From: Acidimicrobiia bacterium
Lineage (GTDB): Bacteria; Actinomycetota; Acidimicrobiia; Spongiisociales; ZC4RG35
Length of the DNA: 64,000 nt
Reading direction: 5' to 3'
NCBI GenBank assembly: GCA_965216725.1
Contig: CBDCGI010000005.1
Coordinates: forward strand, 10,343-74,342
In this document: positions 1 through 16,082 of the stretch, piece by piece
Layout of the letters: every line of letters begins with the position of its first letter
How positions within the stretch are numbered: the stretch's first letter is position 1
Made by a program: the position numbers and the translations under genes
The notes under the pieces: generated by a model
Database searches by the model: none
The model's input: only the letters and a program-made list of their open reading frames with translations
Told to the model about the DNA's origin: nothing

Positions 1-857
1 TGGCTCAAACCCATACCGAGAACTCGACCACCGCGACCGAATCATGGAGAGGCTGGCGCCGCAGTGTCTTCTACGCGATCGTCACGGTGCTACTCGTGGG
101 AGTGGGGATCGTCTTCTGGAAAGTCAACCTGTTCCCGATACTGGCCTGGCTACCCGAGGAATTTCTCAACGACTTCTATGCATCACAGCTCGAGTTCGAT
201 CACATAACTCACGGAGACTTCGGGCCTCACGTCATTCACTATCTCGCGATCTCAGCCACGCACTGGTCGCTGATGATCGGGTTGGCGTTGCAGTACAGGA
301 ACCCGCTCTCAAAGGTTGCGCCGATGTGGCAAGTCACGGGTGGAATGACAGTGGTCACACTGACATACCCGTTCGCTGACGTCTCCCGAATCCCACCACC
401 TGTGTTTGCCATCATCGCCCTGGCCGTCGTCGCCGGATTGCTCCATCCCGCGCGCATTTTCAAGACGGCACCGAAGTTTCGTGACAGGCCGATGTGGGGC
501 TTAGCGCTGGCGGCAGCGGTACCGGTTGTGTTCATGATCGTCGACCAACTCGGGCTGCAGGCATCAGGCGTTGAGGCTGACCCCCACTGGCAAGGTCTGC
601 ACTACAACTTCATGGGTGAATTCGGACTCATCTTCCTGCTGGTACTGACACTTGGTGCGAGCTCCTTGCCGGGCTGGCGTTACTCGGTGTGGACCGGAAC
701 CTTCCTCGCTGCGCTGATGGGCATGGGCTTCGTCGTCTACCCGGATATGTCATCCAGCCAGGGACTCCTCTGGGGGCTGGCTCTAGTCGGTTTCGCTGGT
801 CTCTGGATCACCCTGGGTGAAAGGCGATATCGCACTGCGGTCGGAGTTCGAGGGTGA
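1..857 (+). CDS. Polytopic membrane protein X1, 5'-partial: the reading frame is open to the window start. Paralogous to the product of 3472..4212.
   Basis: Long ORF with multiple hydrophobic helices and no stop back to position 1 in frame. A C-terminal W-R/S-Y/F-S-V-W-T-G-T block is shared with the 3472..4212 product. Confidence 0.5.
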   Translation, partial: AQTHTENSTTATESWRGWRRSVFYAIVTVLLVGVGIVFWKVNLFPILAWLPEEFLNDFYASQLEFDHITHGDFGPHVIHYLAISATHWSLMIGLALQYRNPLSKVAPMWQVTGGMTVVTLTYPFADVSRIPPPVFAIIALAVVAGLLHPARIFKTAPKFRDRPMWGLALAAAVPVVFMIVDQLGLQASGVEADPHWQGLHYNFMGEFGLIFLLVLTLGASSLPGWRYSVWTGTFLAALMGMGFVVYPDMSSSQGLLWGLALVGFAGLWITLGERRYRTAVGVRG

Positions 858-859
858 CA

Positions 860-1468
860 ATGGGAACTGGCCGCGCCGTTGCCGTCGGTGCGGGCCTCGG
901 CTTGGCTTGGGCGGTCTCATTTCGGGCCTGGATGACCCATCTCCAGTTCGACTTCTTCAAGTCTTGGCCCGTCTACACCTGGAAAGGAACCTTCCTTTCG
1001 GTTGTGCTTCCTGCTGTGTTGGTGGGAGCACTACTCGGCTACGACTGGCAGCGACGCCGGCAAGACCAACCACGAATTCCGCTTGCCGTCTGGTCGCCGA
1101 TGCTGATGGCCATCATTCCAGCACTCCTCGCTGAAGACTTCATCGGCACCCTCCTCGAAAACGGGATGGGGAGTGGAGCCATCGCCATCGTCTTGATCGG
1201 GATGGGTGGCGGCTTCGCAATCTCGGGGCGGGGACTGGCTTGGCTCCGACTAGCGGTTGGATTGATCTTCGTCAGCGTCCTCACGGTCATGGCTGTCGGC
1301 TTCTACTTCTGGGATCGTTCCATTTCAGCATCCGGAGGATTCGGGGCTGTGTACCTGGTGGTCCTGCTCGTGTCGCTATCGATCGCTTTCTCAGTTCCGA
1401 TGACGGAACTGCAGGCGATCGGCCACCCCTACCGCGACGCCATAGAGGTGCCCTCAAGGATCTCGTGA
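860..1468 (+). CDS. Membrane protein Y1, paralog of 2879..3475.
   Basis: ATG at 860 (GTG at 854 overlaps the upstream stop as GTGA). RAWMTHLQFDFFKSWPVYTWKGTFLSVVLPAVLVGALLGY aligns with RSWMTHLAIQFNDWPRFTWEGTFLAVLLPAAVVGALIGW in 2879..3475. Multi-TM. Confidence 0.55.
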   Translation: MGTGRAVAVGAGLGLAWAVSFRAWMTHLQFDFFKSWPVYTWKGTFLSVVLPAVLVGALLGYDWQRRRQDQPRIPLAVWSPMLMAIIPALLAEDFIGTLLENGMGSGAIAIVLIGMGGGFAISGRGLAWLRLAVGLIFVSVLTVMAVGFYFWDRSISASGGFGAVYLVVLLVSLSIAFSVPMTELQAIGHPYRDAIEVPSRIS

Positions 1469-2145
1469 TCGTTCCACTTCTCAGCGACTTCGGGGCGAAG
1501 GAGAAGCTGACTCAGCGATCGGTAGAGCCAGAGCTTGTAGTCGCCTACTTCCCAACCGCGTTCCTCGACCAACAGCCGATAAGTCTCGATGCTGTTAATT
1601 GCGAAGGAGACGTCTGCGGCGGCTGCAGGTGTGAGGTCTTCCTTGAGGTCACCAGTAGCCGCCACCGCTTCCATCTGAGAGTGGATCGATTTCCATCTGG
1701 AGGACATCAGGAGTTCCCAGGCCTCTGCGATGTCTGGCTCGGTCGCCATGGCCGCGACCACCGTGGGGTAGATCGGGGCAAATCGCCGGTAGATATCGGC
1801 GCCGTTTTCGCACGCCAGGGCCAGGGTCCTTCGCCCGTCGGATGCGTTGAGGGCTTCGTCCACCCAATCTCGACTCGCTGTGTCGGTGGGCTCATCGGTT
1901 CTGCCGGCCATGAACATGAAGAGCTCTCCGAGGAGACGAGCCTTCGTATTGAAGACGTAGTACACCGTCTGTACAGCAACTCCAGCCTCGTCGGCGATGG
2001 CTTCGACGGTGGTCCCCGCATACCCGTGCTCGGAGAAGAGACGGCGGGCCGCCTGCAGGATCGACCTTCTCGTGGCGGCGGCTTTCTCTTTTCTCGTTGT
2101 CGTCTCTTTGGCGATGGTGTCTCGTCTCCCGATCCGGACTATCAG
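1429..2145 (-). CDS. TetR-family transcriptional regulator. The start codon is unresolved: no ATG, GTG or TTG lies in frame upstream of the HTH.
   Basis: Manual translation upstream of the track ORF gives RKEKAAATRRSILQAARRLFSEHGYAGTTVEAIADEAGVAVQTVYYVFNTKARLL, a classic TetR N-terminal HTH. An in-frame stop at 2176-2178 bounds the 5' end. Only CTG (2143-2145), ATA or ATC are available as starts. Confidence 0.7.
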   Translation of the reverse strand: MIVRIGRRDTIAKETTTRKEKAAATRRSILQAARRLFSEHGYAGTTVEAIADEAGVAVQTVYYVFNTKARLLGELFMFMAGRTDEPTDTASRDWVDEALNASDGRRTLALACENGADIYRRFAPIYPTVVAAMATEPDIAEAWELLMSSRWKSIHSQMEAVAATGDLKEDLTPAAAADVSFAINSIETYRLLVEERGWEVGDYKLWLYRSLSQLLLRPEVAEKWNDHEILEGTSMASR

Positions 2146-2780
2146 GACATCTTGGTCGGTGTCAGCGGTGCTGCCTCATCAGACATGTTCGACACTTCCA
2201 TCAATGCGGCAACCGACATCGCGACCAGGAACCCCTGTGCTCCCACTAGAGGCCATGCCGCCCACCCACTTGCGATGAACACGGGCGTCACCACCAGCAC
2301 TGGCCAGAGCCCTGCAGCCAGTATTGAGTATCGGCGCCAACCGATCCATTTCCGTTCTCGGACTGCCTTGACTCCGGCAACGATCAGTCCCGCGCCAGAT
2401 ACGAGGGCTGCTGCTCCAAGCACTCCGGTCACGACGACACCTGCGGTCGAATCAACAGGAGACTCGCGAAACAGAATGTACGCCAGCTCAGCAGGGACCA
2501 TCACTCCAAACGCGATTGCAGAGGTCGCCAAGGCACCGACTGCCGTCCCATTGGTTGCGTCGGAGTGACGAACACCCCAAGTTCCCGCTACCGCACCTGC
2601 GTGTACTACAGCCAGGACACAAGCCGTCCACCACACCTCTTCTGCCGCAGCCGGATAGCTGAGCTGGGTATCGGCCACCCGTGGTCCAACGACCATGTCT
2701 TTCAGGCCAAGGATCAGGCCGAGAGCTCCTCCAATCACCCCGAACCAACTCAGACGTTTCACCAACATTCGACGCAGCAT
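2142..2780 (-). CDS. Membrane protein, co-oriented upstream of the TetR gene.
   Basis: Hydrophobic multi-TM ORF. An internal ATG at 2780 is preceded by AAAGGAGGA with 6-nt spacing, which is preferred over the GTG at 2810. The stop at 2142-2144 abuts the TetR region. Confidence 0.55.
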   Translation of the reverse strand: MLRRMLVKRLSWFGVIGGALGLILGLKDMVVGPRVADTQLSYPAAAEEVWWTACVLAVVHAGAVAGTWGVRHSDATNGTAVGALATSAIAFGVMVPAELAYILFRESPVDSTAGVVVTGVLGAAALVSGAGLIVAGVKAVRERKWIGWRRYSILAAGLWPVLVVTPVFIASGWAAWPLVGAQGFLVAMSVAALMEVSNMSDEAAPLTPTKMS

Positions 2781-2878
2781 GATCGATCCTCCTTTGCTAG
2801 AGTGAGCCACTAGTGACGAACTATAGTACCGACTCTGGAAGCCGTCCGAAGAATGTCAAGACGGTTCACAGCGGGACG

Positions 2879-3475
2879 ATGCCCAGGGTTCGCGCCGTTG
2901 CCATCGGCGCCGCTGTTGGTCTAGCTTGGGCACTCGCTCTGCGCTCCTGGATGACTCACCTGGCCATTCAGTTCAACGATTGGCCGAGATTCACCTGGGA
3001 AGGCACGTTTTTGGCCGTGCTCCTGCCCGCGGCTGTTGTGGGAGCGTTGATCGGCTGGAACAGTGCGACCGGGGTCGGGAATAGCCGTGGTCGGCGGTGG
3101 GTGATGTGGTCTCCCGTGCTCCTGGCTGTGGGACCGGCACTCCTCGCGGACGATTTCGTAGGAACGCTCATGGACACAGGTGAAGGCAGTGGGGCCCTGG
3201 GTGTCGTCATCATCGGCATCTGCGGTGGGTTTGCGATCTCGGACCGCGGTCGCCCCTGGCTGCGCTGGACCAACGGACTCATCGCTGTGGGGGTCACCGG
3301 CGTCATGACCTACATCTTCTACTTCGCCGAACCGCCGTTCACGAGCAGCGACGCCTTTGGAGCCCTATTGCTAGTGATGCTGATGCTTGGGCTCGCCTTG
3401 GGTTGCTCGGTTCCGAGGCGGGAGTGGGGGCCAACCGGCAAACCCGTTGAGAGCGTCCACCTGGAGACACGATGA
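2879..3475 (+). CDS. Membrane protein Y2, paralog of 860..1468.
   Basis: See 860..1468. The ATG at 2879 aligns with the paralog's N-terminus (MPRVRAVAIGAAVGLAWAL vs MGTGRAVAVGAGLGLAWAV). The track ORF begins at the GTG at 2813. Confidence 0.55.
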   Translation: MPRVRAVAIGAAVGLAWALALRSWMTHLAIQFNDWPRFTWEGTFLAVLLPAAVVGALIGWNSATGVGNSRGRRWVMWSPVLLAVGPALLADDFVGTLMDTGEGSGALGVVIIGICGGFAISDRGRPWLRWTNGLIAVGVTGVMTYIFYFAEPPFTSSDAFGALLLVMLMLGLALGCSVPRREWGPTGKPVESVHLETR

Positions 3476-4212
3476 GCTTCGGCCTCCTTCGAAGTGCGTT
3501 GTCCCAACCCACAAGGGGCGGTGCAATCTCCGGGGCGGCGGCAGTGACGACGCTGGCCATCGGAGGCTCTTTGGCAACCTTCTTTCTGTCGTCCGCTCTG
3601 TGGCTCTCTCGTATGGGCTTTGCGACTCCGGGCGGTTCTGGCGGTCGCCCTTGGACCGTGTGGTTCGTGACTGTAAGCCTTCTACTTGTTCTCCTTCCGC
3701 CCTTCCCGGGAGGGTGGGTGTGGGGCTGGGGGCTTGCACGCATGTTTGACCGTCCGACGCGATCTGCGGCCAAAACCGGGGCGTTGGCATTCGGGGGAAT
3801 GGTATGGCTGACTGCCGCCCCCACCGATCTCACACAACTGTGGCTCGATGGCCTCCCCGCATGGATGCCCTGGGACGTCCATGGCTACTTCACGGTCGTC
3901 TTCATGGTCGAAGTAGCGGTTGTAGGCGGCGTCGCCGCCTGGCGTCTCGCCAAGCGACTCGGCTCCGGACGCTGGAGTTTCTCGGTTGGCGTCTGGACCG
4001 GAACGGCGGCCGCCCTCGGGTTTCTCATCGGCTCGGTCGTGGCTGCCGCTGTCGGCTTCCGGATCTACCCGTGGGTGAGACTGTCGATGGTCTGGGCGTT
4101 TCTTACCGCACTCCCGTTTTCAACCGTGGCTGCGGGTGCCGTGCTCGGTGCTTTGCTGCACCAGTCTCTACGCATGGATACAGATGAACGCGAATTCGTG
4201 GCCCGGCTCTGA
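3472..4212 (+). CDS. Polytopic membrane protein X2, paralog of 1..857. Its start overlaps the previous stop (ATGA).
   Basis: Multi-TM. Shares the C-terminal GRWSFSVGVWTGTAAALGFLIGSVV block with PGWRYSVWTGTFLAALMGMGFVVYP of the first gene. Confidence 0.5.
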   Translation: MSFGLLRSALSQPTRGGAISGAAAVTTLAIGGSLATFFLSSALWLSRMGFATPGGSGGRPWTVWFVTVSLLLVLLPPFPGGWVWGWGLARMFDRPTRSAAKTGALAFGGMVWLTAAPTDLTQLWLDGLPAWMPWDVHGYFTVVFMVEVAVVGGVAAWRLAKRLGSGRWSFSVGVWTGTAAALGFLIGSVVAAAVGFRIYPWVRLSMVWAFLTALPFSTVAAGAVLGALLHQSLRMDTDEREFVARL

Positions 4213-4343
4213 GACATCGGACGTGGGCTCTATCAATCTCTCCCAGACGTCGACCTTGCGGCCATCCGAACTCGACCGAGCCACCAATCTTGAGTCCAGC
4301 TCGGGAGTCCTCGACTTTGGTCGTTTGAAGTCAGAGAACCAGC

Positions 4344-4553
4344 CTTGTGGGGCGCCTGTGGACCGCCAGATCTCGCCGATCACCAATATCGGTGGTGAAG
4401 AGCGATCGCGAATCGCCCTGACCAGGGGATTCGGTGGAGCTGATCGGATTTGAACCGACGACCCCCTCGTTGCGAAAGATGCGGTCAAACCTCTCTGACC
4501 AGGGGAAACGCGCCGGTTGTGGTCCTTTGTGGGGCGGCTGTGGGCCGAGCGAC
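4344..4553 (-). repeat. Composite element A: R1 motif (4344-4375), CTGACCAGGG box, a tRNA-Ala 3'-half-like pseudo-tRNA (about 4432..4510, minus strand) whose 5' half is replaced by a GGTCA..TGACC hairpin, then R2 motif (4515-4553).
   Basis: The segment TTCGCAACGAGGGGGTCGTCGGTTCAAATCCGATCAGCTCCACC matches the tRNA-Ala at 16083..16159 from the anticodon loop to the acceptor 3' strand, with compensatory T-stem changes. It is flanked by cttgtggggcgcctgtgga... and gttgtgg..tttgtggggcggctgtgggccgagcgac. Confidence 0.6.
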
Positions 4554-4646
4554 ATGAGAGGTCGCGAGACGTGGTGAGATGAGGCAGCCAGTTGCTTCCG
4601 ATTTTGTCGTCGTGGGCGCAGGTCGCTCTGCCATGTCCGACCGCCG

Positions 4647-6056
4647 CTAGGACGGTCGGATGTTCTGATTCATGTGAAAAACGTTGTTGGGGTCGTACCG
4701 ATCCTTGAGCGTCACGAGACGCTCGTAAGTGTCGGCACCGTAGGCAGAGCGCACGGCGTCATCCGTCTCATTGGCGAGGAAGTTGAGATACGGATCGCCT
4801 GCCCCGACCAGCTGGAGATCATCCCAGGTGTCCCTCACCCAACTCACATGGTCGCTTCTCGGCTCGCCTTCGTCCCACTGGCCGATCACATTGAATACAA
4901 AGGGCTTGGTTCGATGCGGAAACGCGGTGGCCGAGTCGTCCACTCGACGTACCGCACCACCTAGATGATGCAGATGGAACGTGGAGTGCGGATTCAGGTT
5001 CTCAAGACTCCGACAACGTTCGACGATCGTCCCGATGACTTCCACAGAGAGCGTGTCGAGGTACGCCGTCTTCCAGTAGTTATGCGACCCGTATGGGGCC
5101 GAATTGTCGAACATGGACTGCAGAGCCAGATAAGGCATTGGGCCGACGATGTCGACTTCAGCCGCGGTGAAGTCTCGTAGCGGTTTGAGAGACGCCTCTG
5201 CCTGGCCTTGATCGCCTATGTGGCAGCAAGCGACAGCCACCATTGGGCTGCCAACCAGCTCGGAGGGAACAAATGGCGCCGGAGGAGCAGTGAGGAAAAC
5301 CACCATCGTTGTCAAGTCATCGGGAAGGTTCTCAACCCAATTCGAGTAGAACGACAGAAGATCCTCCGCCTTGTCGGCGCCATACATGATCACCCCTCCG
5401 TAGATGATTGGACCCACCTCGTGAAGCTCGTACTCGAACTCGGTCACGACGCCGAAGTTCCCGCCACCTCCGCGAAGCCCCCAGAGAAGCTCGCTGTTCT
5501 CCTCTTCATCGGCTCGAACGAACTGTCCATCTGCAGTGACCACATCTGCTCCGATGAGGTTGTCAACGGCTAGACCGTGGCGCCGCATCAGCCAGCCGAT
5601 GCCGCCACCCAGAGTGAAGCCGGCGATTCCAGTGGAAGTCACCAGACCCCCGGTCGTTGCCAATCCAAACGCCTGCGTCTCGTGGTCCAGCTCGCCCCAC
5701 AAGACACCGCCCTGAGCTCGGGCCCGTTTCGACTTCGGGTCTACGCGAATGCCTTTCATTGGCGACAGGTCGATCACAAGTCCGCCGTCCACCGTTGCGA
5801 AGCCGGCGACGTTGTGGCCACCACCACGGATGGCGATGTCAAGATCTTCGCTCCTTGCGAACTTGATGGCCTCGGTTACGTCAGCCGCCCCAACGCAACG
5901 AACGATCAATGCGGGATGTCTGTCGATATCCCCGTTCCACACAGTCCGGGCTTCTTCGTAGACGGCATCTTCGGGCGTCACCACCCATCCCCGGATCGCC
6001 TCTCGGAGCTCTTGTACGGTCGCATCGCCGAGTCTGGAGATTTGGGTGGTAGCCAT
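4647..6056 (-). CDS. FAD-linked oxidase of the BBE/VAO-like family (FAD-binding PCMH domain plus BBE-like C-terminus).
   Basis: RGGGHNVAGFATVDGGLVIDLSPM FAD-binding motif region. C-terminal YLNFLANE...YGADTYERLVTLKDRYDPNNVFHMNQNI is a typical BBE C-terminus. ATG at 6056. Confidence 0.8.
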   Translation of the reverse strand: MATTQISRLGDATVQELREAIRGWVVTPEDAVYEEARTVWNGDIDRHPALIVRCVGAADVTEAIKFARSEDLDIAIRGGGHNVAGFATVDGGLVIDLSPMKGIRVDPKSKRARAQGGVLWGELDHETQAFGLATTGGLVTSTGIAGFTLGGGIGWLMRRHGLAVDNLIGADVVTADGQFVRADEEENSELLWGLRGGGGNFGVVTEFEYELHEVGPIIYGGVIMYGADKAEDLLSFYSNWVENLPDDLTTMVVFLTAPPAPFVPSELVGSPMVAVACCHIGDQGQAEASLKPLRDFTAAEVDIVGPMPYLALQSMFDNSAPYGSHNYWKTAYLDTLSVEVIGTIVERCRSLENLNPHSTFHLHHLGGAVRRVDDSATAFPHRTKPFVFNVIGQWDEGEPRSDHVSWVRDTWDDLQLVGAGDPYLNFLANETDDAVRSAYGADTYERLVTLKDRYDPNNVFHMNQNIRPS

Positions 6057-6177
6057 TGAGGTTGCCTTTCAGAGTCCCTCTTCGGGCCGATGTCGGCCCG
6101 AATGCATTCCGCCACTTCTACACCCCGGCTCTTTGCGACGGCTTAGCAATGCCTTGCCAAACTTCTGTCGGCCGAAC

Positions 6178-9100
6178 TCACTTGTCCAAAGACGCCCGGA
6201 GCGTCAAACACCGGTTCGCCTCATCCTCATGGCCAATTCGCTCGAAGGTCTCCGCGGCCTCGGTCAAACACAGGTAGGCCTCCTCTTTGAGCCCTGCCGC
6301 CCGCTGAGCTTCTCCGAGATCGCGCTTAGTGCAGGCGATGTTGAGGCCGAACTCGCCAAAGGCGGCGACCACCGGCAGGGACTCGTTCAGTAGCGACACC
6401 GCAGACTCGGCGTCACCGCCAGCCAGAGCCGCTTGGGCTCGCTCGGTTCCGACCAACGCCAGGCCGATGCGGTCGGCTCGTTGCCGACACAACTCTGTGG
6501 CCTCCTCGAGATAGCTCGCGGCCTCATCCAATCGTCCGCGATCCGCCAGAACACGGACAATGCTGATGAGGCTGGCAACGACCCCTCGCAAGTGGCCGAT
6601 TCGTCTCCTCGAGTTGAGACTTCGCATCAGGTGATGCTCAGCCGCATCGAGGTCTCCGCTCTCGAAATCGAGTTGGCCCCGCCACGACAACGCAAGAGCC
6701 TGACCACTTTCGTCTCCGACTTCCTCGTAATGTCGAAGGGCTGCGTCCAGCAACGAGGCGACCTGATCTAACCGCCCAGACAGCCTCTCGATGTTCGCCC
6801 TAGCCACAGCCACGGAGGCGCTGGCATGACGGCCGATTCCGTCTTCCAGAGAAACGAATGTCTCGCACCACATGTACAAGGTTTCGCCTCTACGTCTGGT
6901 CGGAGCCCAAGCACCCAGCGTGTAGATGTCGAAGACACCAGGAGTCTCGAGGGTCGAGAGGAGCGTCTCGGCTCGATCGAGAAATGCTCCAGCTTCGTCA
7001 TAGTCGAGTCGGAATGTGGCGAGCATGGCCAGGCAGAGATATGCGGAGACCTCGAGCGCATCATCATCAACGCCACGCGCCAGGTCACGGGCTTGTTTGA
7101 ACAAGGCACCCGCGATCTCGAATTCGTCGCGATCGAATGGTCCTATCGCTGCGAGTAGCAGTGCCCGGCCAACCCGCGAATCGTCTGCCAGGGCCGTCGC
7201 CTCTGCGGCGCTCAGAGCGGCGAAACGCTCCATCTCCTCGAATCCCTTCCATCGAAAGGCAACCGCGGAGGCTGCCAACAGCAGGTCTGCCCGATCAGCC
7301 GACGGTCCAGATGCGTGCTCGAGTACACGCTCGATCAACTCGAGCCCTTCACCTAGATGGGCCAGCCAGAGCCAATAGGGCCACAGTCGCGACGCGAGAC
7401 GAACGGCAAGGCTGGGACTCGTGGCCAAGAGATGGTCGACTGCAGGGCCAAGTTCATCGCGTACCGCCGAGAGACGCGCGACCAGTTCAGCGCGGTCCGA
7501 CGCATCGGTCATCCCGCCGGATTCTGACAATCGGAGCAACCACTCGGCGTGGGAGTCCCTCGTTTCTCGGAGAGCACCCTGGTGTCGCAAGGAGTCGAGG
7601 CCGTACTCTCTCATCGTCTCGAGAAGGCGATAGCGGAACTGTCCGTCGGCCGTGATAGCGACCATCGACTTCTCGGCCAGACGACTGAGAAGAGAGGCAA
7701 TCTCACCCTGGATGTCCGACTGCGCTATCGACTGGGCTGCCTCCAGATCAAATGGACCGTTGAACACCGACAGCCTCAGAAACAAAGACTGCTCCGGTTC
7801 TGAAAGCAGATCGAAACTCCAATCGACGGTGGCCTTGAGGGTCCGCTGGCGACTCAAGGCAGTTCGCGCCCCGTCTACCAAAAGCCCCAAACGGTCATCG
7901 AGATTCTTCGCAACGTCGGCGACTGACAAGGTAGGAACGCGTGCCGCAGCCAGTTCGAGCGCCAAAGGCATACCATCGAGCCGGAAACACACCTGAGCAA
8001 CCTCGGTCATGTTTTCTTCGCTGACTTCGAAGTCTGGTTGCACGGCCTGGACCCGCTCACGAAACAACGTGATCGCGTCGAACCGATACATCTCGTCTGC
8101 GGGCGGCAGGTCAGTCGGGTCGGGTACGCGCAACGACGAGACTCTGCGAACTATCTCTCCCGGAACTCGGATCGGCTCTCGACTCGTGGCGAGCACAGTC
8201 AATCCGGGACAGCTCTCCAGGAGGTTTGCCATGGCTACGGCCACGCCATCAGCAACGTGTTCGCAATTGTCCAATATCAGAAGCACTTCGTCCTCGGCGA
8301 TTCGGTCGGCGACAGCCTCGACGGCGGTTCTATCAGGCCCGCGGCGAACGTCCAGAGCCCTCATCAGCTCCGCGGACACCTCATCTGCCCGTGCCACCGG
8401 GGCAAGTTCGACGAGGAACACACCACCACTGAAGTCGTCGAGATGCCTTCGGCCCGCTTCAACGGCCAGCCGAGTCTTTCCGCATCCTCCGGGACCGACC
8501 AGTGTCACCGTCCGACCACTAGACAGCGCCTCTCCGAGTTCGCGCAGCTCCTTCTCTCGCCCGACGAAACTCGACAAGGGAGCACCGATATTCGTCGCAG
8601 GTCGCGACCTGGAAGACGCTCCCGGCTCGACCGGTAACAAGCGGCCCATCGCGATTTCGTCACGAAGACTCTGCGACGTCTTGTCGGGTGCAACGCCCAA
8701 TTCGTCTTGCAGGACCCGCTCCAGCACGTCGTACTGACGCGCAGCAGCGCTCCTTTCGCCCGCCTTGGCGTAGAGCCGCATCAGCTCTCGATGAGCTGAC
8801 TCGTTGGTCGGATCCTCCACCAGGATCTGGCGCAAGAGGTCCGCCGCCGCGTTCGCCTCACCAGAGTCTTCGAGCGCGTTGGCCAGCCCACGCATGAGGT
8901 CCAGATTCAAGCGGTGAAGGATCTCCCGTCGCCCAATTGCCCAATCTGAATATCGATCATCCGGCAGGAGTTCTCCTGGGTAGAGATTCAGAGCGGTCTC
9001 GTAGTCCAATCTTGTCTGACTAACCAGCGCGTGACGCGCCGCAGACTCGAACTCCTCGACGTCCACCGAGAGCCCTCCGCCAGGGCACAAGACCAACGTC

Positions 9101-9393
9101 TCCGCCTCCAAGGACAGAAGGGCACGCCCGTCGCCACCCGCCGAATCGATCGCCCGTCGGGCGGCATGCAGAACCTGATACAGATTGTTGGCTGCTGCAT
9201 CCATATCCCTATCGGGCCACAGAAGATCAAGAACTTCGTCGCGCTGCTTTCGCCAACCACGCGAAAGGGCAAGCAGTTTGATTAGATCCCTGGCCTTGCT
9301 CAGACGCCACACCGATGGCTCGACGGATCGGTCGCCAACCCAGACTTGGAAGTCGCCGAGAAGCACAACACGGAGTTGGCTGTTGTGACCCAT
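6178..9393 (-). CDS. AfsR/SARP-like multidomain regulator: OmpR-type winged helix, BTAD, NB-ARC-like P-loop NTPase and TPR repeats.
   Basis: N-terminal LRVVLLGDFQVWVGDRSVEP...RDEVLDLLWPD (OmpR/SARP DNA-binding domain). BTAD segment LYPGELLPDDRYSDWAIGRREIL. Walker A TLVGPGGCGKTRLAVE. Long C-terminal TPR-like helical repeats. Confidence 0.8.
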   Translation of the reverse strand: MGHNSQLRVVLLGDFQVWVGDRSVEPSVWRLSKARDLIKLLALSRGWRKQRDEVLDLLWPDRDMDAAANNLYQVLHAARRAIDSAGGDGRALLSLEAETLVLCPGGGLSVDVEEFESAARHALVSQTRLDYETALNLYPGELLPDDRYSDWAIGRREILHRLNLDLMRGLANALEDSGEANAAADLLRQILVEDPTNESAHRELMRLYAKAGERSAAARQYDVLERVLQDELGVAPDKTSQSLRDEIAMGRLLPVEPGASSRSRPATNIGAPLSSFVGREKELRELGEALSSGRTVTLVGPGGCGKTRLAVEAGRRHLDDFSGGVFLVELAPVARADEVSAELMRALDVRRGPDRTAVEAVADRIAEDEVLLILDNCEHVADGVAVAMANLLESCPGLTVLATSREPIRVPGEIVRRVSSLRVPDPTDLPPADEMYRFDAITLFRERVQAVQPDFEVSEENMTEVAQVCFRLDGMPLALELAAARVPTLSVADVAKNLDDRLGLLVDGARTALSRQRTLKATVDWSFDLLSEPEQSLFLRLSVFNGPFDLEAAQSIAQSDIQGEIASLLSRLAEKSMVAITADGQFRYRLLETMREYGLDSLRHQGALRETRDSHAEWLLRLSESGGMTDASDRAELVARLSAVRDELGPAVDHLLATSPSLAVRLASRLWPYWLWLAHLGEGLELIERVLEHASGPSADRADLLLAASAVAFRWKGFEEMERFAALSAAEATALADDSRVGRALLLAAIGPFDRDEFEIAGALFKQARDLARGVDDDALEVSAYLCLAMLATFRLDYDEAGAFLDRAETLLSTLETPGVFDIYTLGAWAPTRRRGETLYMWCETFVSLEDGIGRHASASVAVARANIERLSGRLDQVASLLDAALRHYEEVGDESGQALALSWRGQLDFESGDLDAAEHHLMRSLNSRRRIGHLRGVVASLISIVRVLADRGRLDEAASYLEEATELCRQRADRIGLALVGTERAQAALAGGDAESAVSLLNESLPVVAAFGEFGLNIACTKRDLGEAQRAAGLKEEAYLCLTEAAETFERIGHEDEANRCLTLRASLDK

Positions 9394-9478
9394 TTGGAGG
9401 ACCCTATTTTGTCGGCTGCCACCGAGCCGAGGGATTGCGAGAGCACCTCGCAGAAAATGAGGGGGTCACGGCACGAAT

Positions 9479-9688
9479 CTTGTGGGCCCTCTGTGGAGCG
9501 CGAGAATCAACCAGCGCCTCAATCGGCTCGTCGGACGCGGTCAGAAATCGCCCTGACCAGAGTGTTTAGTGGAGCTGACGGGATTTGAACCCGTGACCCC
9601 CTCGTTGCGAAAGATGCGGTCATAGCCCTCTGACCAGGGGGAACGATCTGCAATTGCGGCGTTGTGGGGCGGCTGTGGGCCGAGCGAC
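9479..9688 (-). repeat. Composite element B: R1 motif (9479-9506), CTGACCAG box, a tRNA-Ala 3'-half-like pseudo-tRNA (about 9568..9645, minus strand) whose 5' half is replaced by a hairpin, then R2 motif (9661-9688).
   Basis: The segment TTCGCAACGAGGGGGTCACGGGTTCAAATCCCGTCAGCTCCAC is identical to the 3' half of the tRNA at 16083..16159 except for the terminal CTA (tRNA has CCA). The upstream ~130 bp also aligns with the region downstream of the real tRNA (15955-16082). Confidence 0.65.
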
Positions 9689-9875
9689 GTGAGATCACGT
9701 GAGACGCCGGGCATGCAACAAGATCGAAGAATGGCACACCCAACCGCAACTCTCCTATCGCCAGCGGCACACGCCACCTCGCCGGTCGTGACACGGGAAA
9801 GTCCACTCAGCATGGTGTTGGGGCGAGCACTGGCCATAGAATCTCTGACTCGTCTGGAGGGATACCACCGTCACT

Positions 9876-10559
9876 CTGAAACCGAGAACAATCTTCGTTG
9901 ACGAGAGTGGCGTGGGTGGTCAAGGACCCTTCATCGTCGTCGGCGCTCTCAAGTTCGCTAGGGACTACGGCTTGGTCACAAACGAACTTGTCACCTTGCG
10001 TGACAAGGCCAACTGGAGATCCGAAGCCCACTTTTCCAAGATCAATCGGACCACCGAGCATCTCTACCGGGAGACCATCAAGATTGTCGCCGAATCCGGT
10101 GCCCGCTTTAGGTACGTGGTTCACGATCGGCGGCAACCGAACCTCGACTTTGAACGCCATAAGGAACCCTGGAAGCGTGACGCTCAACTGGCGATTCGCC
10201 TCCTACGGTCGGCCACATGGACCGGCGAGACAGTCACGTCCATCATCGACTACGTGTCAACGCCGCGCTCGGTTAATTACGAGAACTACATCCACGTAGC
10301 TGTAAATCGGCTGCTCGGGGAGGAACAGGTTGTCTCTGTTCTCAGAATGGACTCCAAGACCTGTTGGGGCCTCCAACTCGCTGACATCCTCACTGGAGCG
10401 GTAGCGCACCAATACATGCAGTCAGTCAAGTCCGAGGTCAAGGCGACGACGCCAAAAGGGAGGGTCGCTGGGTTCGTCGCCGAGACCTACAACCTTGAGT
10501 CACTGATCATGGCTGATTCCAAGAAACTCAAAATGATCGGACTACCAAAGAAGGATTAA
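9876..10559 (+). CDS. DUF3800-family protein. The start codon is unresolved: the conserved N-terminus lies upstream of the first canonical start.
   Basis: Manual translation upstream of the GTG at 9912 gives TIFVDESGVGGQGPF, the (I/Y)(F/I)(I/V)DESG signature of DUF3800. C-terminal LQLADILTGAV matches the second DUF3800 signature. No ATG, GTG or TTG lies between the in-frame stop at 9846-9848 and the motif (candidates: CTG at 9876, ATC at 9891). G+C is visibly lower than in the neighbouring genes. Confidence 0.55.
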   Translation: MKPRTIFVDESGVGGQGPFIVVGALKFARDYGLVTNELVTLRDKANWRSEAHFSKINRTTEHLYRETIKIVAESGARFRYVVHDRRQPNLDFERHKEPWKRDAQLAIRLLRSATWTGETVTSIIDYVSTPRSVNYENYIHVAVNRLLGEEQVVSVLRMDSKTCWGLQLADILTGAVAHQYMQSVKSEVKATTPKGRVAGFVAETYNLESLIMADSKKLKMIGLPKKD

Positions 10560-10695
10560 GGGTTCACTAAAGGGCACCGACGCTATAGAGTGGACGGTGT
10601 CCACGGTGTGAGTCTCCGACTCCTAGCCGTGGCCGAGGTGCGAGCCCCCGGCTCTCAGCCTCGCAGCGCCACACGGCGCAACACATCATTACTCA

Positions 10696-10727
10696 GGAAG
10701 GGGCCTCTCAAACGGGAGGTCCCTTCC
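10696..10727. terminator. Hairpin GGAAGGGGCCTC-(loop)-GGGAGGTCCCTTCC followed by tcctttat, lying between convergent genes. Candidate bidirectional intrinsic terminator.
   Basis: Imperfect 12-bp stem followed by a T-rich tail, read directly from the sequence. Confidence 0.4.
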
Positions 10728-10879
10728 TCCTTTATCGGCCAATCTCTTGGTCCGCGGGCGACAGACCCAGATCTTTCGAGCCGGGGATGTCGCTCGAATA
10801 GATGGACTGCGGGCCCGGCGTGAGTCAGGAACCACGAAGATCGCGTGAGTGTGTGCAGGGTCAAGGCCTGAGATTGTGG

Positions 10880-11158
10880 TCAGGAGCAGTTCTGAAGGAA
10901 TTGCTCGATCGCCGCGTCATCCTCAAACGTCGAAGCCAACTCGGACGCTCGTTTGATTGGTCCCTTGACCTCATTTGGGGCGACCTCATATAGAGCGGCC
11001 ATCGCCTCTTGCCTGCTCTGGTCCCGCACCGTCTCGTACGTCTGACAGAACACACCGATCTCCTCGACGGTCGCTGGCAACGGAGCCGTGGTCGCAGTGT
11101 TGGGAGCGCCAGCACACGCAGCCAACACCACCGCCATCAAGACCATGTGTCGCCTCAT
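10880..11158 (-). CDS. Small secreted lipoprotein, about 92 aa.
   Basis: N-terminus MRRHMVLMAVVLAACAGAPN: signal peptide with LAAC lipobox. The ATG at 11158 overlaps the stop of the upstream gene (ATGA). The long N-terminal extension in the track ORF is read-through and is not supported. Confidence 0.5.
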   Translation of the reverse strand: MRRHMVLMAVVLAACAGAPNTATTAPLPATVEEIGVFCQTYETVRDQSRQEAMAALYEVAPNEVKGPIKRASELASTFEDDAAIEQFLQNCS

Positions 11159-11964
11159 GAGGACAGTTTGTGACGCAAGCTCCGGATGATTCGTATCACG
11201 AGTGCAAGTCCGGCAATCGCCCAGCAGGCCAACATTCCTTGAATTGCGAACCCCGCCAGAGAGTCGGCCGTCTCGACCGACCAAGGCAGTGCGATCGGGT
11301 TTGGAATCGAGCCGACGAGCATCGGATGAAACAGGGCGATTATCCCGAGCGCTGCTGCCACGACGTAGGTGAATCGGACTGCCCAGCGCCAACCTCTCGA
11401 AGGGAGGCGGCCGTTGGGGATCGTCATCAAGAAACGAGGAACGATCACTACCAGCAGAAGGATCCACGTAACCGAACCAACTAGCGCCGCGAGCCGACCG
11501 CCGGGCAGACTCCCAGGTTCGATCATCGTCCCCCTTACCGCATACGCACCGGCAACCGCACCGACCAAGTCGACTAGTGGACCGAGAATCAGAAGCCATC
11601 CGATCTGATTCCCCCACCTGAGCACCAGTAATGCTCCAAGAGCAGCGATTGCAGTCAGCACCACCGGATACGCAAATCCACCGTGATCATCGAATGGGAC
11701 ACATTCCACCTGCCCTGAAGCGACGAGCTCCCCGGCGTCGGAACAGACAGGCTGGCCGCTGTAAACAAGCTGCTCGTAAGCCTCGACGTCGAAGTCACTT
11801 GAGCTGACGTAGCTCGGGATCGGTTCATCGGATAGACCGGACTCGAGCACCGTCAGCACCAACCCAAGGGCCAATACCAGAAAGACCAAGCCGTAGATCC
11901 GGACTCGCCGTCTGCCGTAGGTAGTCGGCCTGGCATGGGGTTCCACTGTTGTGTTCGAATTCAC
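11155..11964 (-). CDS. Membrane protein that is a stand-alone paralog of the transmembrane sensor domain of the histidine kinase at 12074..14269.
   Basis: LLLVVIVPRFLMTIPNGRLPSRGWRWAVRFTYVVAAALGIIALFHP aligns with HK VVLGPLLLLTFPNGRLVSTRWRWVPGVALLSGALLLVQLAHP, and the flanking helices also align. The GTG at 11964 is preceded by AAAGGAGGAGAAGGA. Confidence 0.55.
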   Translation of the reverse strand: MNSNTTVEPHARPTTYGRRRVRIYGLVFLVLALGLVLTVLESGLSDEPIPSYVSSSDFDVEAYEQLVYSGQPVCSDAGELVASGQVECVPFDDHGGFAYPVVLTAIAALGALLVLRWGNQIGWLLILGPLVDLVGAVAGAYAVRGTMIEPGSLPGGRLAALVGSVTWILLLVVIVPRFLMTIPNGRLPSRGWRWAVRFTYVVAAALGIIALFHPMLVGSIPNPIALPWSVETADSLAGFAIQGMLACWAIAGLALVIRIIRSLRHKLSS

Positions 11965-12073
11965 TCCTTCTCCTCCTTTGGAGACGTCATTCGAACGTAA
12001 GGTCCGATCCGGCCAACCGACACATGGCCTACCCCACATCTGATCACCGTGGAGACACCACCCGGCTTTAGGT

Positions 12074-14269
12074 ATGCCAACGGTGTCTCCAACGCCCCGT
12101 GGTTGGCATGATTGGGCGATGACCCGGGCCTGGATGGTTTTAGTGGGTGTCCTGATCGCTGCCGTGGCCACGCTCGTCCTCACGCTGGGAACCTCGGACA
12201 CGCGAGCACCTGTCGTCGCCTTCGAAGATTTCACCTATCAGGAGGCCGAGCGGACCCTGAGCGAGGTTCCACTACTGCTGGCAGACGACCCGGCGCTTGA
12301 CGTTGAAGACTTGGATGGTCGATACCCGCTCCTGACTGCCATCGAAGGGCCGGAGCCTGCAGGCGTGGCATGGGCAGCCCTCGGCGTTCTGACCGCACTT
12401 CTTGGGGTTCTTGCCTGGGTCCGGGCATCCAACCGGTTCGGCTGGTATCTGATGGCGGTTGGAATCGTGGCGGTGGCGTTTGGAATGGCGCGCGCTGTCT
12501 CCGATTTCGCAGTCCACAGAAGCCCTACGGAATCGGTCTTCGGATCCCAGGCGGCTTTTGCACTCGCAGACACTCTGTGGATTCCCTTGGGTGTCGTCTT
12601 GGGGCCGCTTCTCTTGTTGACGTTTCCCAATGGCCGGCTTGTCTCGACGAGGTGGCGCTGGGTTCCAGGGGTGGCGTTGCTGTCCGGTGCGCTTTTGTTG
12701 GTTCAACTGGCTCATCCCCGTCGTTACGACGGACGTGCCCTGGCTCCATACCCAGCTCCGAATCTCGACATCCTCGAGCCTCTCTTCAATCTGGGGATCT
12801 ACCTATGGATGCTGGCCTTGGCGGTCGCCGGTTTGTCTCTGATAGTGCGGTTCTTCCGATCGGCCGGCTCAGAGCGGGACCAGCTCAAGTGGGTTACGTA
12901 TGGGCTCGTGGTCTCCCTAGCTCTGCTCGCCTTGTCAGACCTGGCGCAGCGATTCGGCGGTGATCCAGCCATCTGGGGGCCCGTTGCCAGTGCCGGCTTC
13001 CTCTTCTTGTTACCCCTCACGTTTCTCTTCTCGATCTTTCGCTACCGACTTTTCTCTATCGACATCGTGATCAACCGCACAGTGCTGTTCGGTGTCCTCT
13101 CTCTGCTCGTGGCATTGACATACGTCGCTGCCATCGCAGTGGCTGGATCGCTGGTAGGAGCCGGAAATGTGACGTCAGCTCTCATTGCGATGACCGTCAC
13201 GGCCTTCGCGTTCGAGCCACTGCGAGTGAGGACCGTGTCCCTCTTCGACCGGCTCGTCTGGAGGAGGCGCTCGGAGCCAGGCGACGCGCTGACCGAAGTA
13301 TTCACCACAATCGAAGACCGAGACGGAGATGAGGGCATGACGACCGTCGTCGGTGCCGTTGCTGAGGCTACCAATGCCCGCTACGTGGCGCTTTGGATCA
13401 ACAATGGGGAAGACATTCGGCTGTTGGTGACAGCTCCTTCGGACGTTGAACAGTCGCTGGACGACGGGTGGGACGTCGTCGCACCAGTTGGCGACACCGG
13501 AGCTCTCGGGGTCCGCATGTCACCCGGCGACCGGCTCCGGCGACAGGAGAGGAGACTTGTCCACGACCTGGCGGGGCTCGCTGCGCTCCTCCTCAAGAAC
13601 AACCAGTTGCGGTCAGATTTGGACGGCATAGTCGCTGAGCTCGAAACCAGGCACGGCGAGCTCATAGCCGCCGAAAGACGTCTGCAGGATGTCGTCGATC
13701 GGACACGAGCGGATGTGGAGCGCGACCTCCACGACGGGGCACAGGCGAGAGCTGTTGCCCTTGCCTCGGCCATCGGATTGGCCCGGGTCGCCCCCACCTC
13801 CACAGACCCGCAGCAACTGGCTTCTCTAATCGAGAACGCAGAAGAGGAGGTCGTTTCCTTCGCAAACGGCCTGTACCCCGCCGCTCTTGGCGCGAGCGGA
13901 CTCGAAGGAGCGATTCGGGGTCAAGCTCGCCTCCTCCTGCCGGACGCAGTCGTCCAAGTGGAAGCTGACGGGGTACCCCAAGACATCGCGGCAGTTGCGT
14001 ACCTGGTGGCCAGCGAAGCCATCTTGAACGTGGCCAAGCACGCCGGGTCGTCGCAAAACCCACCAAGGATCAGATGCGCGACGGATGGTTCCGAGCTCAG
14101 CATCGTTGTCAGCGACGACGGACCAGGCTTCTCGGTTCCTGCGCGGTCGACTGGCTCAGGGCTCAAAAACATCAGGGAGAGAGTCGAAGCCCTGGAGGGC
14201 TCCCTTCGTGTTGACTCGACGCCCGGCTATGGAACCAACCTCCTAGCCACAATCCCTGTGACACCATGA
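12074..14269 (+). CDS. Sensor histidine kinase: polytopic N-terminal sensor with FPNGRL / RWRW motifs, a HisKA_3-type DHp domain and an HATPase_c domain.
   Basis: About 350 aa of membrane region, then ERDLHDGAQARAVAL (HisKA_3 H-box), then ILNVAKHAGS...VSDDGPGF...GSGLKNIRERVEALEG (N, G1 and G2 boxes). The start could instead be the internal ATG at 12119. Confidence 0.8.
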   Translation: MPTVSPTPRGWHDWAMTRAWMVLVGVLIAAVATLVLTLGTSDTRAPVVAFEDFTYQEAERTLSEVPLLLADDPALDVEDLDGRYPLLTAIEGPEPAGVAWAALGVLTALLGVLAWVRASNRFGWYLMAVGIVAVAFGMARAVSDFAVHRSPTESVFGSQAAFALADTLWIPLGVVLGPLLLLTFPNGRLVSTRWRWVPGVALLSGALLLVQLAHPRRYDGRALAPYPAPNLDILEPLFNLGIYLWMLALAVAGLSLIVRFFRSAGSERDQLKWVTYGLVVSLALLALSDLAQRFGGDPAIWGPVASAGFLFLLPLTFLFSIFRYRLFSIDIVINRTVLFGVLSLLVALTYVAAIAVAGSLVGAGNVTSALIAMTVTAFAFEPLRVRTVSLFDRLVWRRRSEPGDALTEVFTTIEDRDGDEGMTTVVGAVAEATNARYVALWINNGEDIRLLVTAPSDVEQSLDDGWDVVAPVGDTGALGVRMSPGDRLRRQERRLVHDLAGLAALLLKNNQLRSDLDGIVAELETRHGELIAAERRLQDVVDRTRADVERDLHDGAQARAVALASAIGLARVAPTSTDPQQLASLIENAEEEVVSFANGLYPAALGASGLEGAIRGQARLLLPDAVVQVEADGVPQDIAAVAYLVASEAILNVAKHAGSSQNPPRIRCATDGSELSIVVSDDGPGFSVPARSTGSGLKNIRERVEALEGSLRVDSTPGYGTNLLATIPVTP

Positions 14270-15060
14270 CATCCCAGAGCCTTCCCGCCACGGCACGCAT
14301 ATTGATCTCCAGTGCTAGCGGCCTCGTCGCCGTGACAGTCTTCTCTCTCATGGCGCTGCCGTTCGGCTTCGCAGGGCTCACCGAGCCGACACCAGCGCCC
14401 ATCCTCTTGGGCGCTGCAATTCTGACAACTGTCATGCCACAGGTTCGCAGGTCTATGGGGCGGGTCATTGAACGGAATCCAAGATGGGCGAGCGGCGACT
14501 CATATGAGCTCATGGCAGCCGGATCGCGCCTCAAGCCTGAGACCGGGCCCAATGCTGTGCTCAGCGAACTGGCTGAGCTTGCCCGAAGGTCTGCGGCTGG
14601 CAGTTCAGCCAAGGTCCAATCCGAAATCGGTGAAGCAGAATCCGGCACTCCCAGCTCAACCGCGTTCCGAACCTCCGTGAACCACCTAGGCCGGGAGATC
14701 GCTTCAATAACGGTAACGAGTTCTAGCCCTCTGAAGCCTCAGCAGCGAAAGAGAGTGGAGCAGCTGGCATTGTCAGTCGGAGTGGTTGTAGCCAATGCTG
14801 TTGTCATCGGCAGCATCGAGGAGAGAATCTCGGAGTTGGATCGCACCATCGAACTCATCACGATGAGAAGAAGGTCTGTCGTCGAAGCGGAGGCAGCGGA
14901 AAGGCAACGGGTCGCCAGCGATGTTGTCGCCGGGACCGAGCCCATGTTTCGACAACTTGAGTCATCCATAGGGGCCGGGGACTTCGGCGACGCCGCAGAC
15001 ACGTGTGACCAGCTCATAGTGTTTCTCCGTGGCTTCTCGACGGCCATGCGGGAGCAATGA
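14266..15060 (+). CDS. Histidine-kinase-like protein with 2 TM helices, a juxtamembrane segment and a DHp-like region. It has no phospho-acceptor His and no ATPase domain.
   Basis: The start overlaps the HK stop (ATGA). SSPLKPQQRKRVEQLALSVGVV...EAEAAERQRVASDVVAGTEPMFRQL aligns with HK SPGDRLRRQERRLVHDLAGLAAL...RTRADVERDLHDGAQARAVAL. The H-box His is replaced (ASDVVAG vs ERDLHDG). Confidence 0.5.
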   Translation: MTSQSLPATARILISSASGLVAVTVFSLMALPFGFAGLTEPTPAPILLGAAILTTVMPQVRRSMGRVIERNPRWASGDSYELMAAGSRLKPETGPNAVLSELAELARRSAAGSSAKVQSEIGEAESGTPSSTAFRTSVNHLGREIASITVTSSSPLKPQQRKRVEQLALSVGVVVANAVVIGSIEERISELDRTIELITMRRRSVVEAEAAERQRVASDVVAGTEPMFRQLESSIGAGDFGDAADTCDQLIVFLRGFSTAMREQ

Positions 15061-15752: not shown

Positions 15753-16082
15753 CGATCCGAGAAATCTCAAACGCCGGGTCACGGTCCGAAACCCGGTTCT
15801 AGGAGCCGCCGCGAGTTCTGAGGGACCAAGCCGAGTTCTCGGAGAGTGATCGGCGTCGCTTGACCGGCAGTCCCGTGGCACGCCTGCCACTTCTGGGCAC
15901 CAAGAGCTACAGCCCTCGCTCGATCGACTTCGCTCAGGAACCAGCAACTCAGCCTGACCCCCTCGCAGCAAATGAGGGGGTCAGCGATCAGATCTTGTGG
16001 GGCGCCTGTGGAGCGCGAGACTCGACCAACGCCCAATTCGGCCGACTGGGAGCCAGTCAGAAACGGTCCTGACCAGGGCAAA

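Follow-up and report, generated by a model that had tools for sequence, protein, structure and literature searches.

Tandem insertion at tRNA and transfer-messenger RNA (tmRNA) genes, with partial copies of the gene as separators, is already well known, and the known cases include actinomycete integrative elements, streptococcal integrative and conjugative elements (ICEs) with their cis-mobilizable elements (CIMEs), tycheposons and islands of Dehalococcoides. Several tRNA-targeting elements with a tyrosine integrase have an identity block that runs from the anticodon loop to the 3' end of their target, among them pSAM2 (tRNA-Pro), SLP1 (tRNA-Tyr) and mycobacteriophage L5 (tRNA-Gly); the sublocations within tRNA genes at which integration occurs were reportedly classified by Williams in 2002. 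In integron cassette arrays, which depend on attC sites and the integrase IntI, the attC sites measure 57–141 bp and form an imperfect dyad (R''/L''/L'/R'), and the cassettes are mostly promoterless, contain a single open reading frame (ORF) and lie in one orientation. Here we describe a stretch of 64,000 nucleotides (the window) from an Acidimicrobiia bacterium (GenBank assembly GCA_965216725.1, contig CBDCGI010000005.1, positions 10,343 to 74,342 of the forward strand), in which a unit of up to 300 nt, built around the 3' portion of a tRNA-Ala(CGC) gene, recurs between blocks of unrelated genes. We propose that these units are the attachment-site (att) modules of gene cassettes that enter tRNA-Ala(CGC) of Acidimicrobiia by conservative site-specific recombination and stack in tandem, a reading to which we assign a probability of roughly 0.75.

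CIMEs and tandem accretion have been described for ICESt1 and ICESt3 of Streptococcus thermophilus (Pavlovic 2004; Bellanger 2011; both summarised in PMC5704250), and CIMEs are regarded there as occasional decay products beside a functional ICE or integrative and mobilizable element. For the tRNA-linked islands of Prochlorococcus, integrase-carrying elements as well as fragmented integrase remnants were reported, and a tycheposon is characterised by a hallmark tyrosine recombinase plus replication or packaging modules (bioRxiv 10.1101/2020.12.28.424599). Tandem genomic islands at ssrA in Dehalococcoides are outlined in PMC3146451. What is distinctive about the arrays reported here is that they form a lineage-wide system, in which every array unit is cargo-only and yet has a full two-armed attachment module.

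Structure of the units

The tRNA-Ala(CGC) gene is the sole tRNA gene called by ARAGORN in the window. A 43-nt block corresponding to its 3' portion (TTCGCAACGAGGGGGTC....GTTCAAATCC..TCAGCTCCAC), from the anticodon loop TTCGCAA to the discriminator, was found in three co-oriented copies, designated A, B and C, and a tRNA was called by ARAGORN and Rfam for copy C alone. In copies A and B, the sequence TGACCGCATCT stands in for the tRNA 5' half; ahead of it come the repeat R2, a CCCTGGTCAGAG box and a GGTCAG-n-TGACC hairpin. In all three copies, a C(C/T)CTGGTCAGG box follows the core, with the repeat R1 55–56 nt further on. The order of the full module is phased CTCAC/CCACA boxes and R2, a CTGGTCAG box, a GGTCA-n8-TGACC hairpin and the 43-nt tRNA end, followed by a second CTGGTCAGG box, R1 and an inverted tRNA-like palindrome; the parts before and after the tRNA-derived core are referred to below as the P arm and the P' arm. 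The CTCAC-type boxes are spaced ~11 bp apart, equivalent to one helical turn, and R1 and R2 continue the series in 11-bp phase.

The 17-nt R motif occurred five times in the 64 kb, every time inside a unit, and R1 and R2 were invariant even in copies outside the selection made by the search pattern (L002b, L005b). Five of the seven CTGGTCAG boxes in the window lie inside units. Copies A and B are 80% identical over 170 nt; R1 is kept in copy A and the palindrome is absent from it. A further match to TTCGCAACGAGG, at 20983–20994, was dismissed as chance, sitting within a PlsY-like coding sequence. A preliminary description of this DNA had proposed a composite element in which repeats bracket a pseudo-tRNA with a hairpin in place of its 5' half, and all the features that it listed were located at or beside the positions it gave. 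Its 210-bp unit is present but extends further than described: in profile alignments it measured 255 nt in copy A and 300 nt in copy B, with phased TCTCAC-type boxes beyond R2 and, in B, the palindrome.

Occurrence of the units in other genomes

A scan of 185,579 species genomes with a tRNA-free pattern (CTGGTCAGG, a gap and R1) yielded nine true loci, seven of which bear the title Acidimicrobiia, Acidimicrobiaceae or Actinomycetota and two, L005 and L008, the title uncultured Acidobacteriota; a tenth locus (L007) was a chance match of the pattern in coding DNA. A somewhat looser pattern gave 29 metagenome loci. With an nhmmer profile of 325 positions, built from twelve full units, 67 distinct copies were recognised in 53 loci, almost all of them with the label Acidimicrobiia or Actinomycetota, so that the element first described from a single window proved to have many relatives.

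At least two copies were present in 25 loci, on one strand every time and with a start-to-start spacing of 1.0–8.6 kb. Arrays begin at an intact tRNA-Ala and are closed by a copy that stops precisely at the 3' end of the tRNA. P arm, core and P' arm were found together in 31 of the 67 copies. Another 16, including copy C of the window, consist of the real tRNA and a P' arm or are contig-cut copies of equal extent (this class includes L001, L004, L017, L028–L030, L032, L034 and L037). Eight comprise P arm and core only, and in several of these similarity breaks off no more than a few nucleotides from the tRNA 3' end, where unrelated sequence takes over; terminal copies of this kind lie in L005 (7557–7708), L016, L023 and L051 (20007–20157). 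Decayed or partial copies were represented by seven with a partial P' arm and three with a P' arm only, plus small fragments.

The cassettes between the units are 1–8.6 kb long and multi-gene, with genes in both orientations, and cassettes down to ~0.7 kb still have full arms (L005 6890–7557). Their cargo includes regulators of the BTAD, LuxR and STAND types (some with kinase and WD40 domains), hydrolases, phosphoenolpyruvate-utilising enzymes, a beta-lactamase-fold protein and ABC transporters. Transposases were also present inside cassettes, one of the IS110 family (DEDD_Tnp_IS110; L061 15236–16294) and one of the IS256/Mutator family (L036 11537–12862).

Metagenome contigs often end within a unit (L003, L010, L013, L015, L026, L046 and others); the repeats break assemblies, and arrays are probably under-represented in metagenome-assembled genomes. 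A tRNA-like sequence in L006 (2640–2760), with the acceptor stem GGAGCTG...CAGCTCC, has A3-U70 in place of the alanine identity pair G3-U70; it was not called by ARAGORN, and it has a dihydrouridine synthase (Dus) gene directly before it and a normal P' arm after it. In L016, a CTCAC box past the palindrome has grown into a (CCTCA)n run (CTCACCTCACCTCACCTCACCTCACC; 262–300), a pattern that suggests slippage of the box motif. The same locus contains a second, isolated tRNA remnant with T arm and 3' end (GCTTCAAATCCCGTCAGTTCCAC; 6844–6910), which is situated ~40 nt past the terminal copy of P arm and core and looks like the scar of an older event.

Evidence for insertion and exchange of cassettes

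Related contigs were fetched via homologues of the conserved flank protein. One of them (L049) proved to be an empty site, at which the intact tRNA-Ala is followed by unrelated sequence with neither R1 nor an arm, while the upstream synteny (MoeA, MoaC, a 146-aa ORF and a 204-aa flank protein) is that of the occupied loci. Another (L051) holds a complete two-cassette array, in which the tRNA and a partial P' arm are followed by a second unit and by a terminal copy of P arm and core. The inserted DNA is bounded by direct repeats of the tRNA 3' end, with the intact tRNA at one end.

Four loci (L043, L044, L046 and L047) were 99.3–99.7% identical from the chromosomal flank through the tRNA and cassette 1, up to and including the P arm of copy 2. 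Within copy 2, L043 splits from the other three immediately 3' of TTCGCAACGAGG; L044, L046 and L047 share the T arm and part from one another in the trailer just past it, and beyond these breakpoints the four carry differing DNA. The junction of shared and variable DNA thus coincides with the core, which places the exchange point in or adjoining the anticodon-loop/stem block; breakpoints at the palindrome form a second class and are considered below.

Like cargo was found at differing array positions across genomes. The smallest cassette seen, a two-gene module of ~700 bp, was present in eight loci (L002, L004, L005, L016, L018, L022, L025 and L033, the copies in L022 and L025 being identical), for instance at L005 6939–7453 and L004 475–980, with a between-locus identity of 63–100%. 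It encodes proteins of ~80 aa (VVDIEASARKHGV...VIHTMKARKKF) and ~90 aa, the latter with a C-terminal helix-turn-helix (HTH; MSKSRAERAKALEEW...GVSKQAAQRKYG). No Pfam or NCBIfam family was assigned to either protein, with a weak HTH match at most, and the pair looks toxin-antitoxin-like. Homologues of genes in cassette 3 of the window lie between two units in L061.

Conserved arms of related integrative elements had been one of the interpretations offered in the preliminary description, and the co-oriented arrays starting at tRNA-Ala, the terminal copies at the tRNA 3' end, the empty site and the strain breakpoints all fit it. Its remark that the conservation exceeds what a simple att scar needs was fair, as the units have the look of attP-type modules that are complete and maintained, not of scars.

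Proposed mechanism

A free cassette would carry an attP of ~300 bp. Its P arm would comprise three to six CTCAC/CCACA boxes ~11 bp apart and ending at R2, then the CTGGTCAG box and the GGTCA-n8-TGACC hairpin; the core, composed of TGACCGCATCT, TTCGCAA and CGAGGGGGTCA, would copy the tRNA from the anticodon loop to the 3' end; and the P' arm would contain the CTGGTCAGG box, a spacer of ~55 nt, R1 and the tRNA-like palindrome. Imperfect inverted half-sites surround a 7-nt overlap (TTCGCAA) in the core, and the anatomy of the unit corresponds to that of an attP of the lambda type. Strand exchange in or near the anticodon loop would join the chromosomal tRNA 5' half to the cassette 3' half, with copy C as the resulting attL, and would move the displaced tRNA 3' half to the far end; the 43-nt core of copy C would in that case have come from the adjoining cassette. 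Later cassettes would enter existing sites, which would explain internal junctions with both arms, such as copies B and A.

We infer that strand exchange is catalysed in trans by a tyrosine integrase of the lambda type. R1, R2 and the boxes are putative arm-type or accessory-protein binding sites, since direct repeats occur in both arms, R1 and R2 are invariant and the spacing is phased at ~11 bp; the CTGGTCAG boxes and the GGTCA/TGACC motifs are, judged by their sequence, further candidate protein sites. The T stem was the only part of the unit that covaried (A-U/G-C 10:10; C-G/G-C 12:7), and the P-arm hairpin was nearly invariant, without covariation. The compensatory changes claimed in the preliminary description were thereby recovered in the T stem but not in the replacement hairpin or elsewhere in the aligned copies. 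The cassette would have to supply a tRNA-Ala 3' half that works once joined to the 5' half, and this would account for the covariation of the T stem.

A more far-reaching version of this scheme is a dedicated, integron-like cassette platform on tRNA-Ala(CGC), in which one recombinase, with its gene at another place in the genome or on a rare helper, would insert, excise and shuffle cargo-only cassettes with a maintained ~300-bp attP-type module, and in which the palindrome may be a second exchange site. We put this forward tentatively, as a possibility that we rate below even odds by a good way.

Missing integrase and alternative explanations

Several results weigh against integration of cassettes by a site-specific recombinase at a single crossover point, first among them the missing enzyme. 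No Pfam Phage_integrase match was obtained among ~80 ORFs beside units or at array ends, and no integrase was present among the precomputed Pfam labels of the called genes in the 19 loci L043–L061. A regular expression for the catalytic motifs returned nothing, and phmmer with lambda Int, L5 Int and XerC, three seeds with only moderate sensitivity, returned nothing in the window or in L001–L039. Neither an integrase nor a remnant of one was detected in ~0.5 Mb of array DNA, one complete array included. No copy of the unit was found in IMG/VR by pattern scans or in phage and plasmid collections by blastn, and hence no autonomous helper is known. The one IMG/VR contig with a tRNA-Ala core (L062) turned out to hold an ordinary tRNA beside a LacI-type gene, with no P' arm.

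The arrays could instead be graveyards of formerly autonomous integrative elements that have lost their integrase, with inert units that are alike through recent common descent. Decay to integrase-less CIMEs is a documented streptococcal route (PMC5704250), many copies are partial in the ways enumerated above, and the IS110 and IS256-type transposases within some cassettes would suit such decay. However, both arms are intact in nearly half of the copies (31/67), R1 and R2 are invariant across many species, and ~0.5 Mb contained not one integrase remnant. Full arms also bound cassettes of only ~0.7 kb, and cassette content differs among strains that are otherwise 99.3–99.7% identical, which argues for recent exchange. 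We consider an origin as fossil scars unlikely.

A second set of observations that does not sit easily with a single crossover point concerns the breakpoints. The three P'-only copies start right after the tRNA 3' end, away from that point, and that of L016 hardly differs from the P' arm beside the real tRNA in L017; these copies hint that breaks also occur at the tRNA 3' end, possibly through another element targeting that sublocation. Similarity is lost at or just before the palindrome in copy A, in L009 and in copy 1 of L043, and L043 and L047 have a P' arm in common and diverge at the palindrome. The T arms of L043 and L047 differ between otherwise shared flanks, a mosaic that looks like gene conversion. 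The half-sites of the palindrome copy both sides of the tRNA anticodon arm (X, AGCACCTC; Y, GACCCCCTC) around a constant asymmetric loop (ATTTCCTGC), and in L001–L039 and the window they were combined as X-X' (~20 cases), Y-X' (seven), Y-Y' (four) and X-Y' (three). Further CTCAC boxes often come after the X' arm, and only there; the Y' arm gives way to unrelated DNA. The palindrome could be a second exchange site, or these breakpoints could stem from its fragility.

Breakpoints at more than one position of the unit would also be accommodated if the units had a local role, as tRNA 3' trailer, processing signal or insulator, and merely served as anchors at which cassettes are swapped by homologous recombination after DNA uptake, with no dedicated recombinase. 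The outcome of the regular-expression and phmmer searches and the L043/L047 mosaic, with its differing T arm between shared P and P' arms, are compatible with this explanation. Nevertheless, the first duplication of the tRNA 3' half and the terminal copies at the tRNA 3' end require site-specific insertion, nothing in the chromosome at the empty site of L049 corresponds to the P arm, the phased direct-repeat boxes are typical of protein-bound att arms, and the units contain no terminator-like pattern. As the sole mechanism, homologous recombination therefore appears improbable; as a contribution to cassette turnover, homologous exchange between units may well play a part, as the T-arm mosaic suggests.

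The preliminary description had further suggested a family of small structured or tRNA-like RNAs expressed downstream of tRNA-Ala. Several short hairpins are indeed conserved (87.6% of cells paired), and in the predicted fold of copy B, GUGACCCCCUC pairs with the tRNA-derived GAGGGGGUCAC. On the other side, the fold z-scores of the units were −1.48 and −1.31, no Rfam family was assigned, and neither ARAGORN nor Rfam called a tRNA in A or B, for which only tmRNA-like matches of 14–20 bits, below the gathering score of 47, were recorded. Covariation was confined to the T stem, the P-arm hairpin hardly varies and the palindrome is mismatched at two positions in ~45% of copies. A pattern scan found no promoter-like or terminator-like pattern in the units, and the idea that the palindrome acts as a terminator was discarded on that basis. 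We regard an RNA family as very unlikely, and that suggestion was not upheld.

A self-multiplying repeat derived from a tRNA, of the kind of a miniature inverted-repeat transposable element or short interspersed nuclear element, was the remaining suggestion and can practically be dismissed: the unit is short, conserved and multi-copy with a tRNA-derived core, but each locus has one co-oriented array downstream of a single tRNA gene, no dispersed copies occur elsewhere in the 64-kb window, in the fetched chromosomal flanks or in any fetched locus, there are no terminal inverted repeats or target duplications, and the units bound 1–8.6 kb of unrelated genes.

Features of the window

The coordinates of the units and cassettes are collected in Table 1. 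No integrase was found in cassettes 1 and 2 (Pfam; phmmer). Upstream of the tRNA, the window continues with housekeeping genes, which encode an HAD/translin-named 202-aa protein, MoeA, a nucleotidyl transferase, PlsY and BacA. The gene for the 202-aa protein adjoins tRNA-Ala (16852–17460, minus strand) and is conserved across Acidimicrobiia, with 2034 homologues at E ≤ 1e-10; it is named 'translin' by JGI and 'haloacid dehalogenase' by NCBI and flanks occupied and empty sites alike. A 67-nt direct repeat with 70% identity (16201–16267 and 16786–16852) lies upstream of the tRNA, flanking an ORF at 16289–16771. Cassette 3 contains a paralogous pair of membrane-protein genes (854–1468 and 2813–3475) with the shared motif AWMTHL...W(P)..TW(K/E)GTFL, for which just 15 homologues were found among 5.8 billion proteins. 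The cargo was not recognised as a defence island, PADLOC returning generic kinase/TPR matches and one candidate match for the DUF3800 protein.

Table 1. Positions of the tRNA gene, the units with their parts and the cassettes. Coordinates refer to the window unless a locus is named.
Feature	Position	Strand	Remarks
Intact tRNA-Ala(CGC), array anchor (attL side)	16083–16159	minus	ARAGORN; Rfam RF00005, 64.8 bits
Copy C, module around real tRNA	15955–16159	minus	conserved module common to A and B
Copy C, core (43-nt identity block)	16085–16127	minus	identical to B block
Copy C, P' arm	15954–16084	minus	family profile positions 118–296
Copy C, CCCTGGTCAGGA box	16067–16078	minus	within P' arm
Copy C, box hairpin	16055–16074	minus	within P' arm
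Copy C, perfect 11-bp palindrome, CTGACCCCCTC-n9-GAGGGGGTCAG	15954–15984		after R1
R1 (CCACAGnnnnCCCACAAG)	15994–16011 (C), 9479–9496 (B), 4344–4361 (A)	minus	
R2 (CCACAGCCGCCCCACAA)	9661–9678 (B), 4526–4543 (A)	minus	in A and B only
Copy B, full hybrid unit	9421–9720	minus	300 nt; profile 16–315, E 2e-85
Copy B, TCTCAC boxes	9688–9704	minus	
Copy B, CCCTGGTCAGAG box	9628–9639	minus	
Copy B, P-arm hairpin GGTCAG-n-TGACC	9618–9635	minus	
Copy B, pseudo 5' half TGACCGCATCT	9612–9622	minus	
Copy B, core	9569–9611	minus	identical to C
Copy B, box 2	9551–9562	minus	
Copy B, box hairpin	9539–9558	minus	
Copy B, imperfect palindrome, GTGACCCCCTC-n9-GAGGTGCT	9442–9469	minus	
Copy A, hybrid unit with truncated P' arm	4331–4585	minus	255 nt; profile 16–270, E 1e-60
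Copy A, boxes	4553–4579	minus	
Copy A, CTGGTCAG box	4493–4504	minus	
Copy A, hairpin GGTCAG-n-TGACC	4483–4500	minus	
Copy A, pseudo 5' half	4477–4487	minus	
Copy A, core	4434–4476	minus	compensated T stem, TCGG/CCGA vs. CGGG/CCCG
Copy A, box 2	4416–4427	minus	
Cassette 1, ~6.2 kb	9721–15953		between C and B; DUF3800 protein, unknown ORFs, 731-aa HATPase_c protein, LuxR-type response regulator (Pfam)
Cassette 2, ~4.8 kb	4586–9420		between B and A (Pfam)
BBE/FAD oxidase	4647–6056	minus	cassette 2
BTAD-ATPase-TPR regulator, 1071 aa	6178–9393	minus	cassette 2
Cassette 3, partial	1–4330		continues past left window end; membrane proteins
P'-only units	L016 119–262, L021 4818–4959, L004 1661–1786		joined to unrelated upstream DNA

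Comparison with known systems

With the att sites of the pSAM2, SLP1 and L5 type, the units share a 43-nt block starting in the anticodon loop, regeneration of the tRNA, imperfect inverted half-sites, direct motifs in both arms over ~300 bp and an empty site in a relative. They differ from these in that no integrase or excisionase gene was found beside any of the 67 copies, that the arms are kept at nearly all internal junctions and that the inserts, down to ~0.7 kb, are cargo-only. Like CIMEs, the cassettes have att sites on either side, contain no genes for integration or transfer and stand in tandem at the 3' end of the target gene (cassettes 1 and 2; the L051 array). Unlike CIMEs, they make up whole arrays in many species, and no decayed integrase, transfer genes or functional partner was seen in the 53 loci. 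Successive integrations at one tRNA or tmRNA gene that push older elements inward, partial tRNA copies as separators and strain-variable adaptive cargo are traits in common with tycheposons and the ssrA islands of Dehalococcoides. In contrast to tycheposons, neither intact nor fragmentary integrases were found, the hallmark recombinase and replication or packaging genes were not found in any locus, and the att module is far longer and better conserved than a partial-tRNA repeat.

The pdif modules of Acinetobacter plasmids and the integrative mobile elements exploiting Xer recombination (IMEX) use the host recombinases XerC/D. They resemble the cassettes in having no recombinase of their own, in being bounded by short half-site pairs and in their ability to stack in tandem. 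Long arms with phased repeats, as in the units, are not known as a feature of dif sites, and the arms of core and palindrome (AGCACCTC and GACCCCCTC) seem unlike the dif consensus.

The host class, Acidimicrobiia, is abundant in soil and water and poorly studied. If a recombinase acting in trans does service the cassettes, this would account for the strain-level differences at a single hotspot that concern regulators, hydrolases, transporters and resistance-like genes. The 300-bp module could be used as a probe to count cassettes in metagenomes, to search for the recombinase by co-occurrence and to attempt recombination in vitro.

The arrays resemble integrons in their recombinase-less cassettes with conserved structured sites between them, their hypervariability among strains and their small toxin-antitoxin-like cassettes. 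They depart from integrons at the array head, where a tRNA gene is found, with housekeeping genes upstream (for an HAD/translin-named protein, MoaC, MoeA, a nucleotidyl transferase and PlsY), and no intI, attI or Pc was seen; in their sites, which are ~300 bp long, tRNA-derived and attP-like rather than attC hairpins of 60–140 bp; and in their cassettes, which are multi-gene, contain genes in both orientations and have regulators of their own. Should a trans-acting recombinase indeed serve these cassettes, they would represent a second, independently evolved route to integron-like gene capture.

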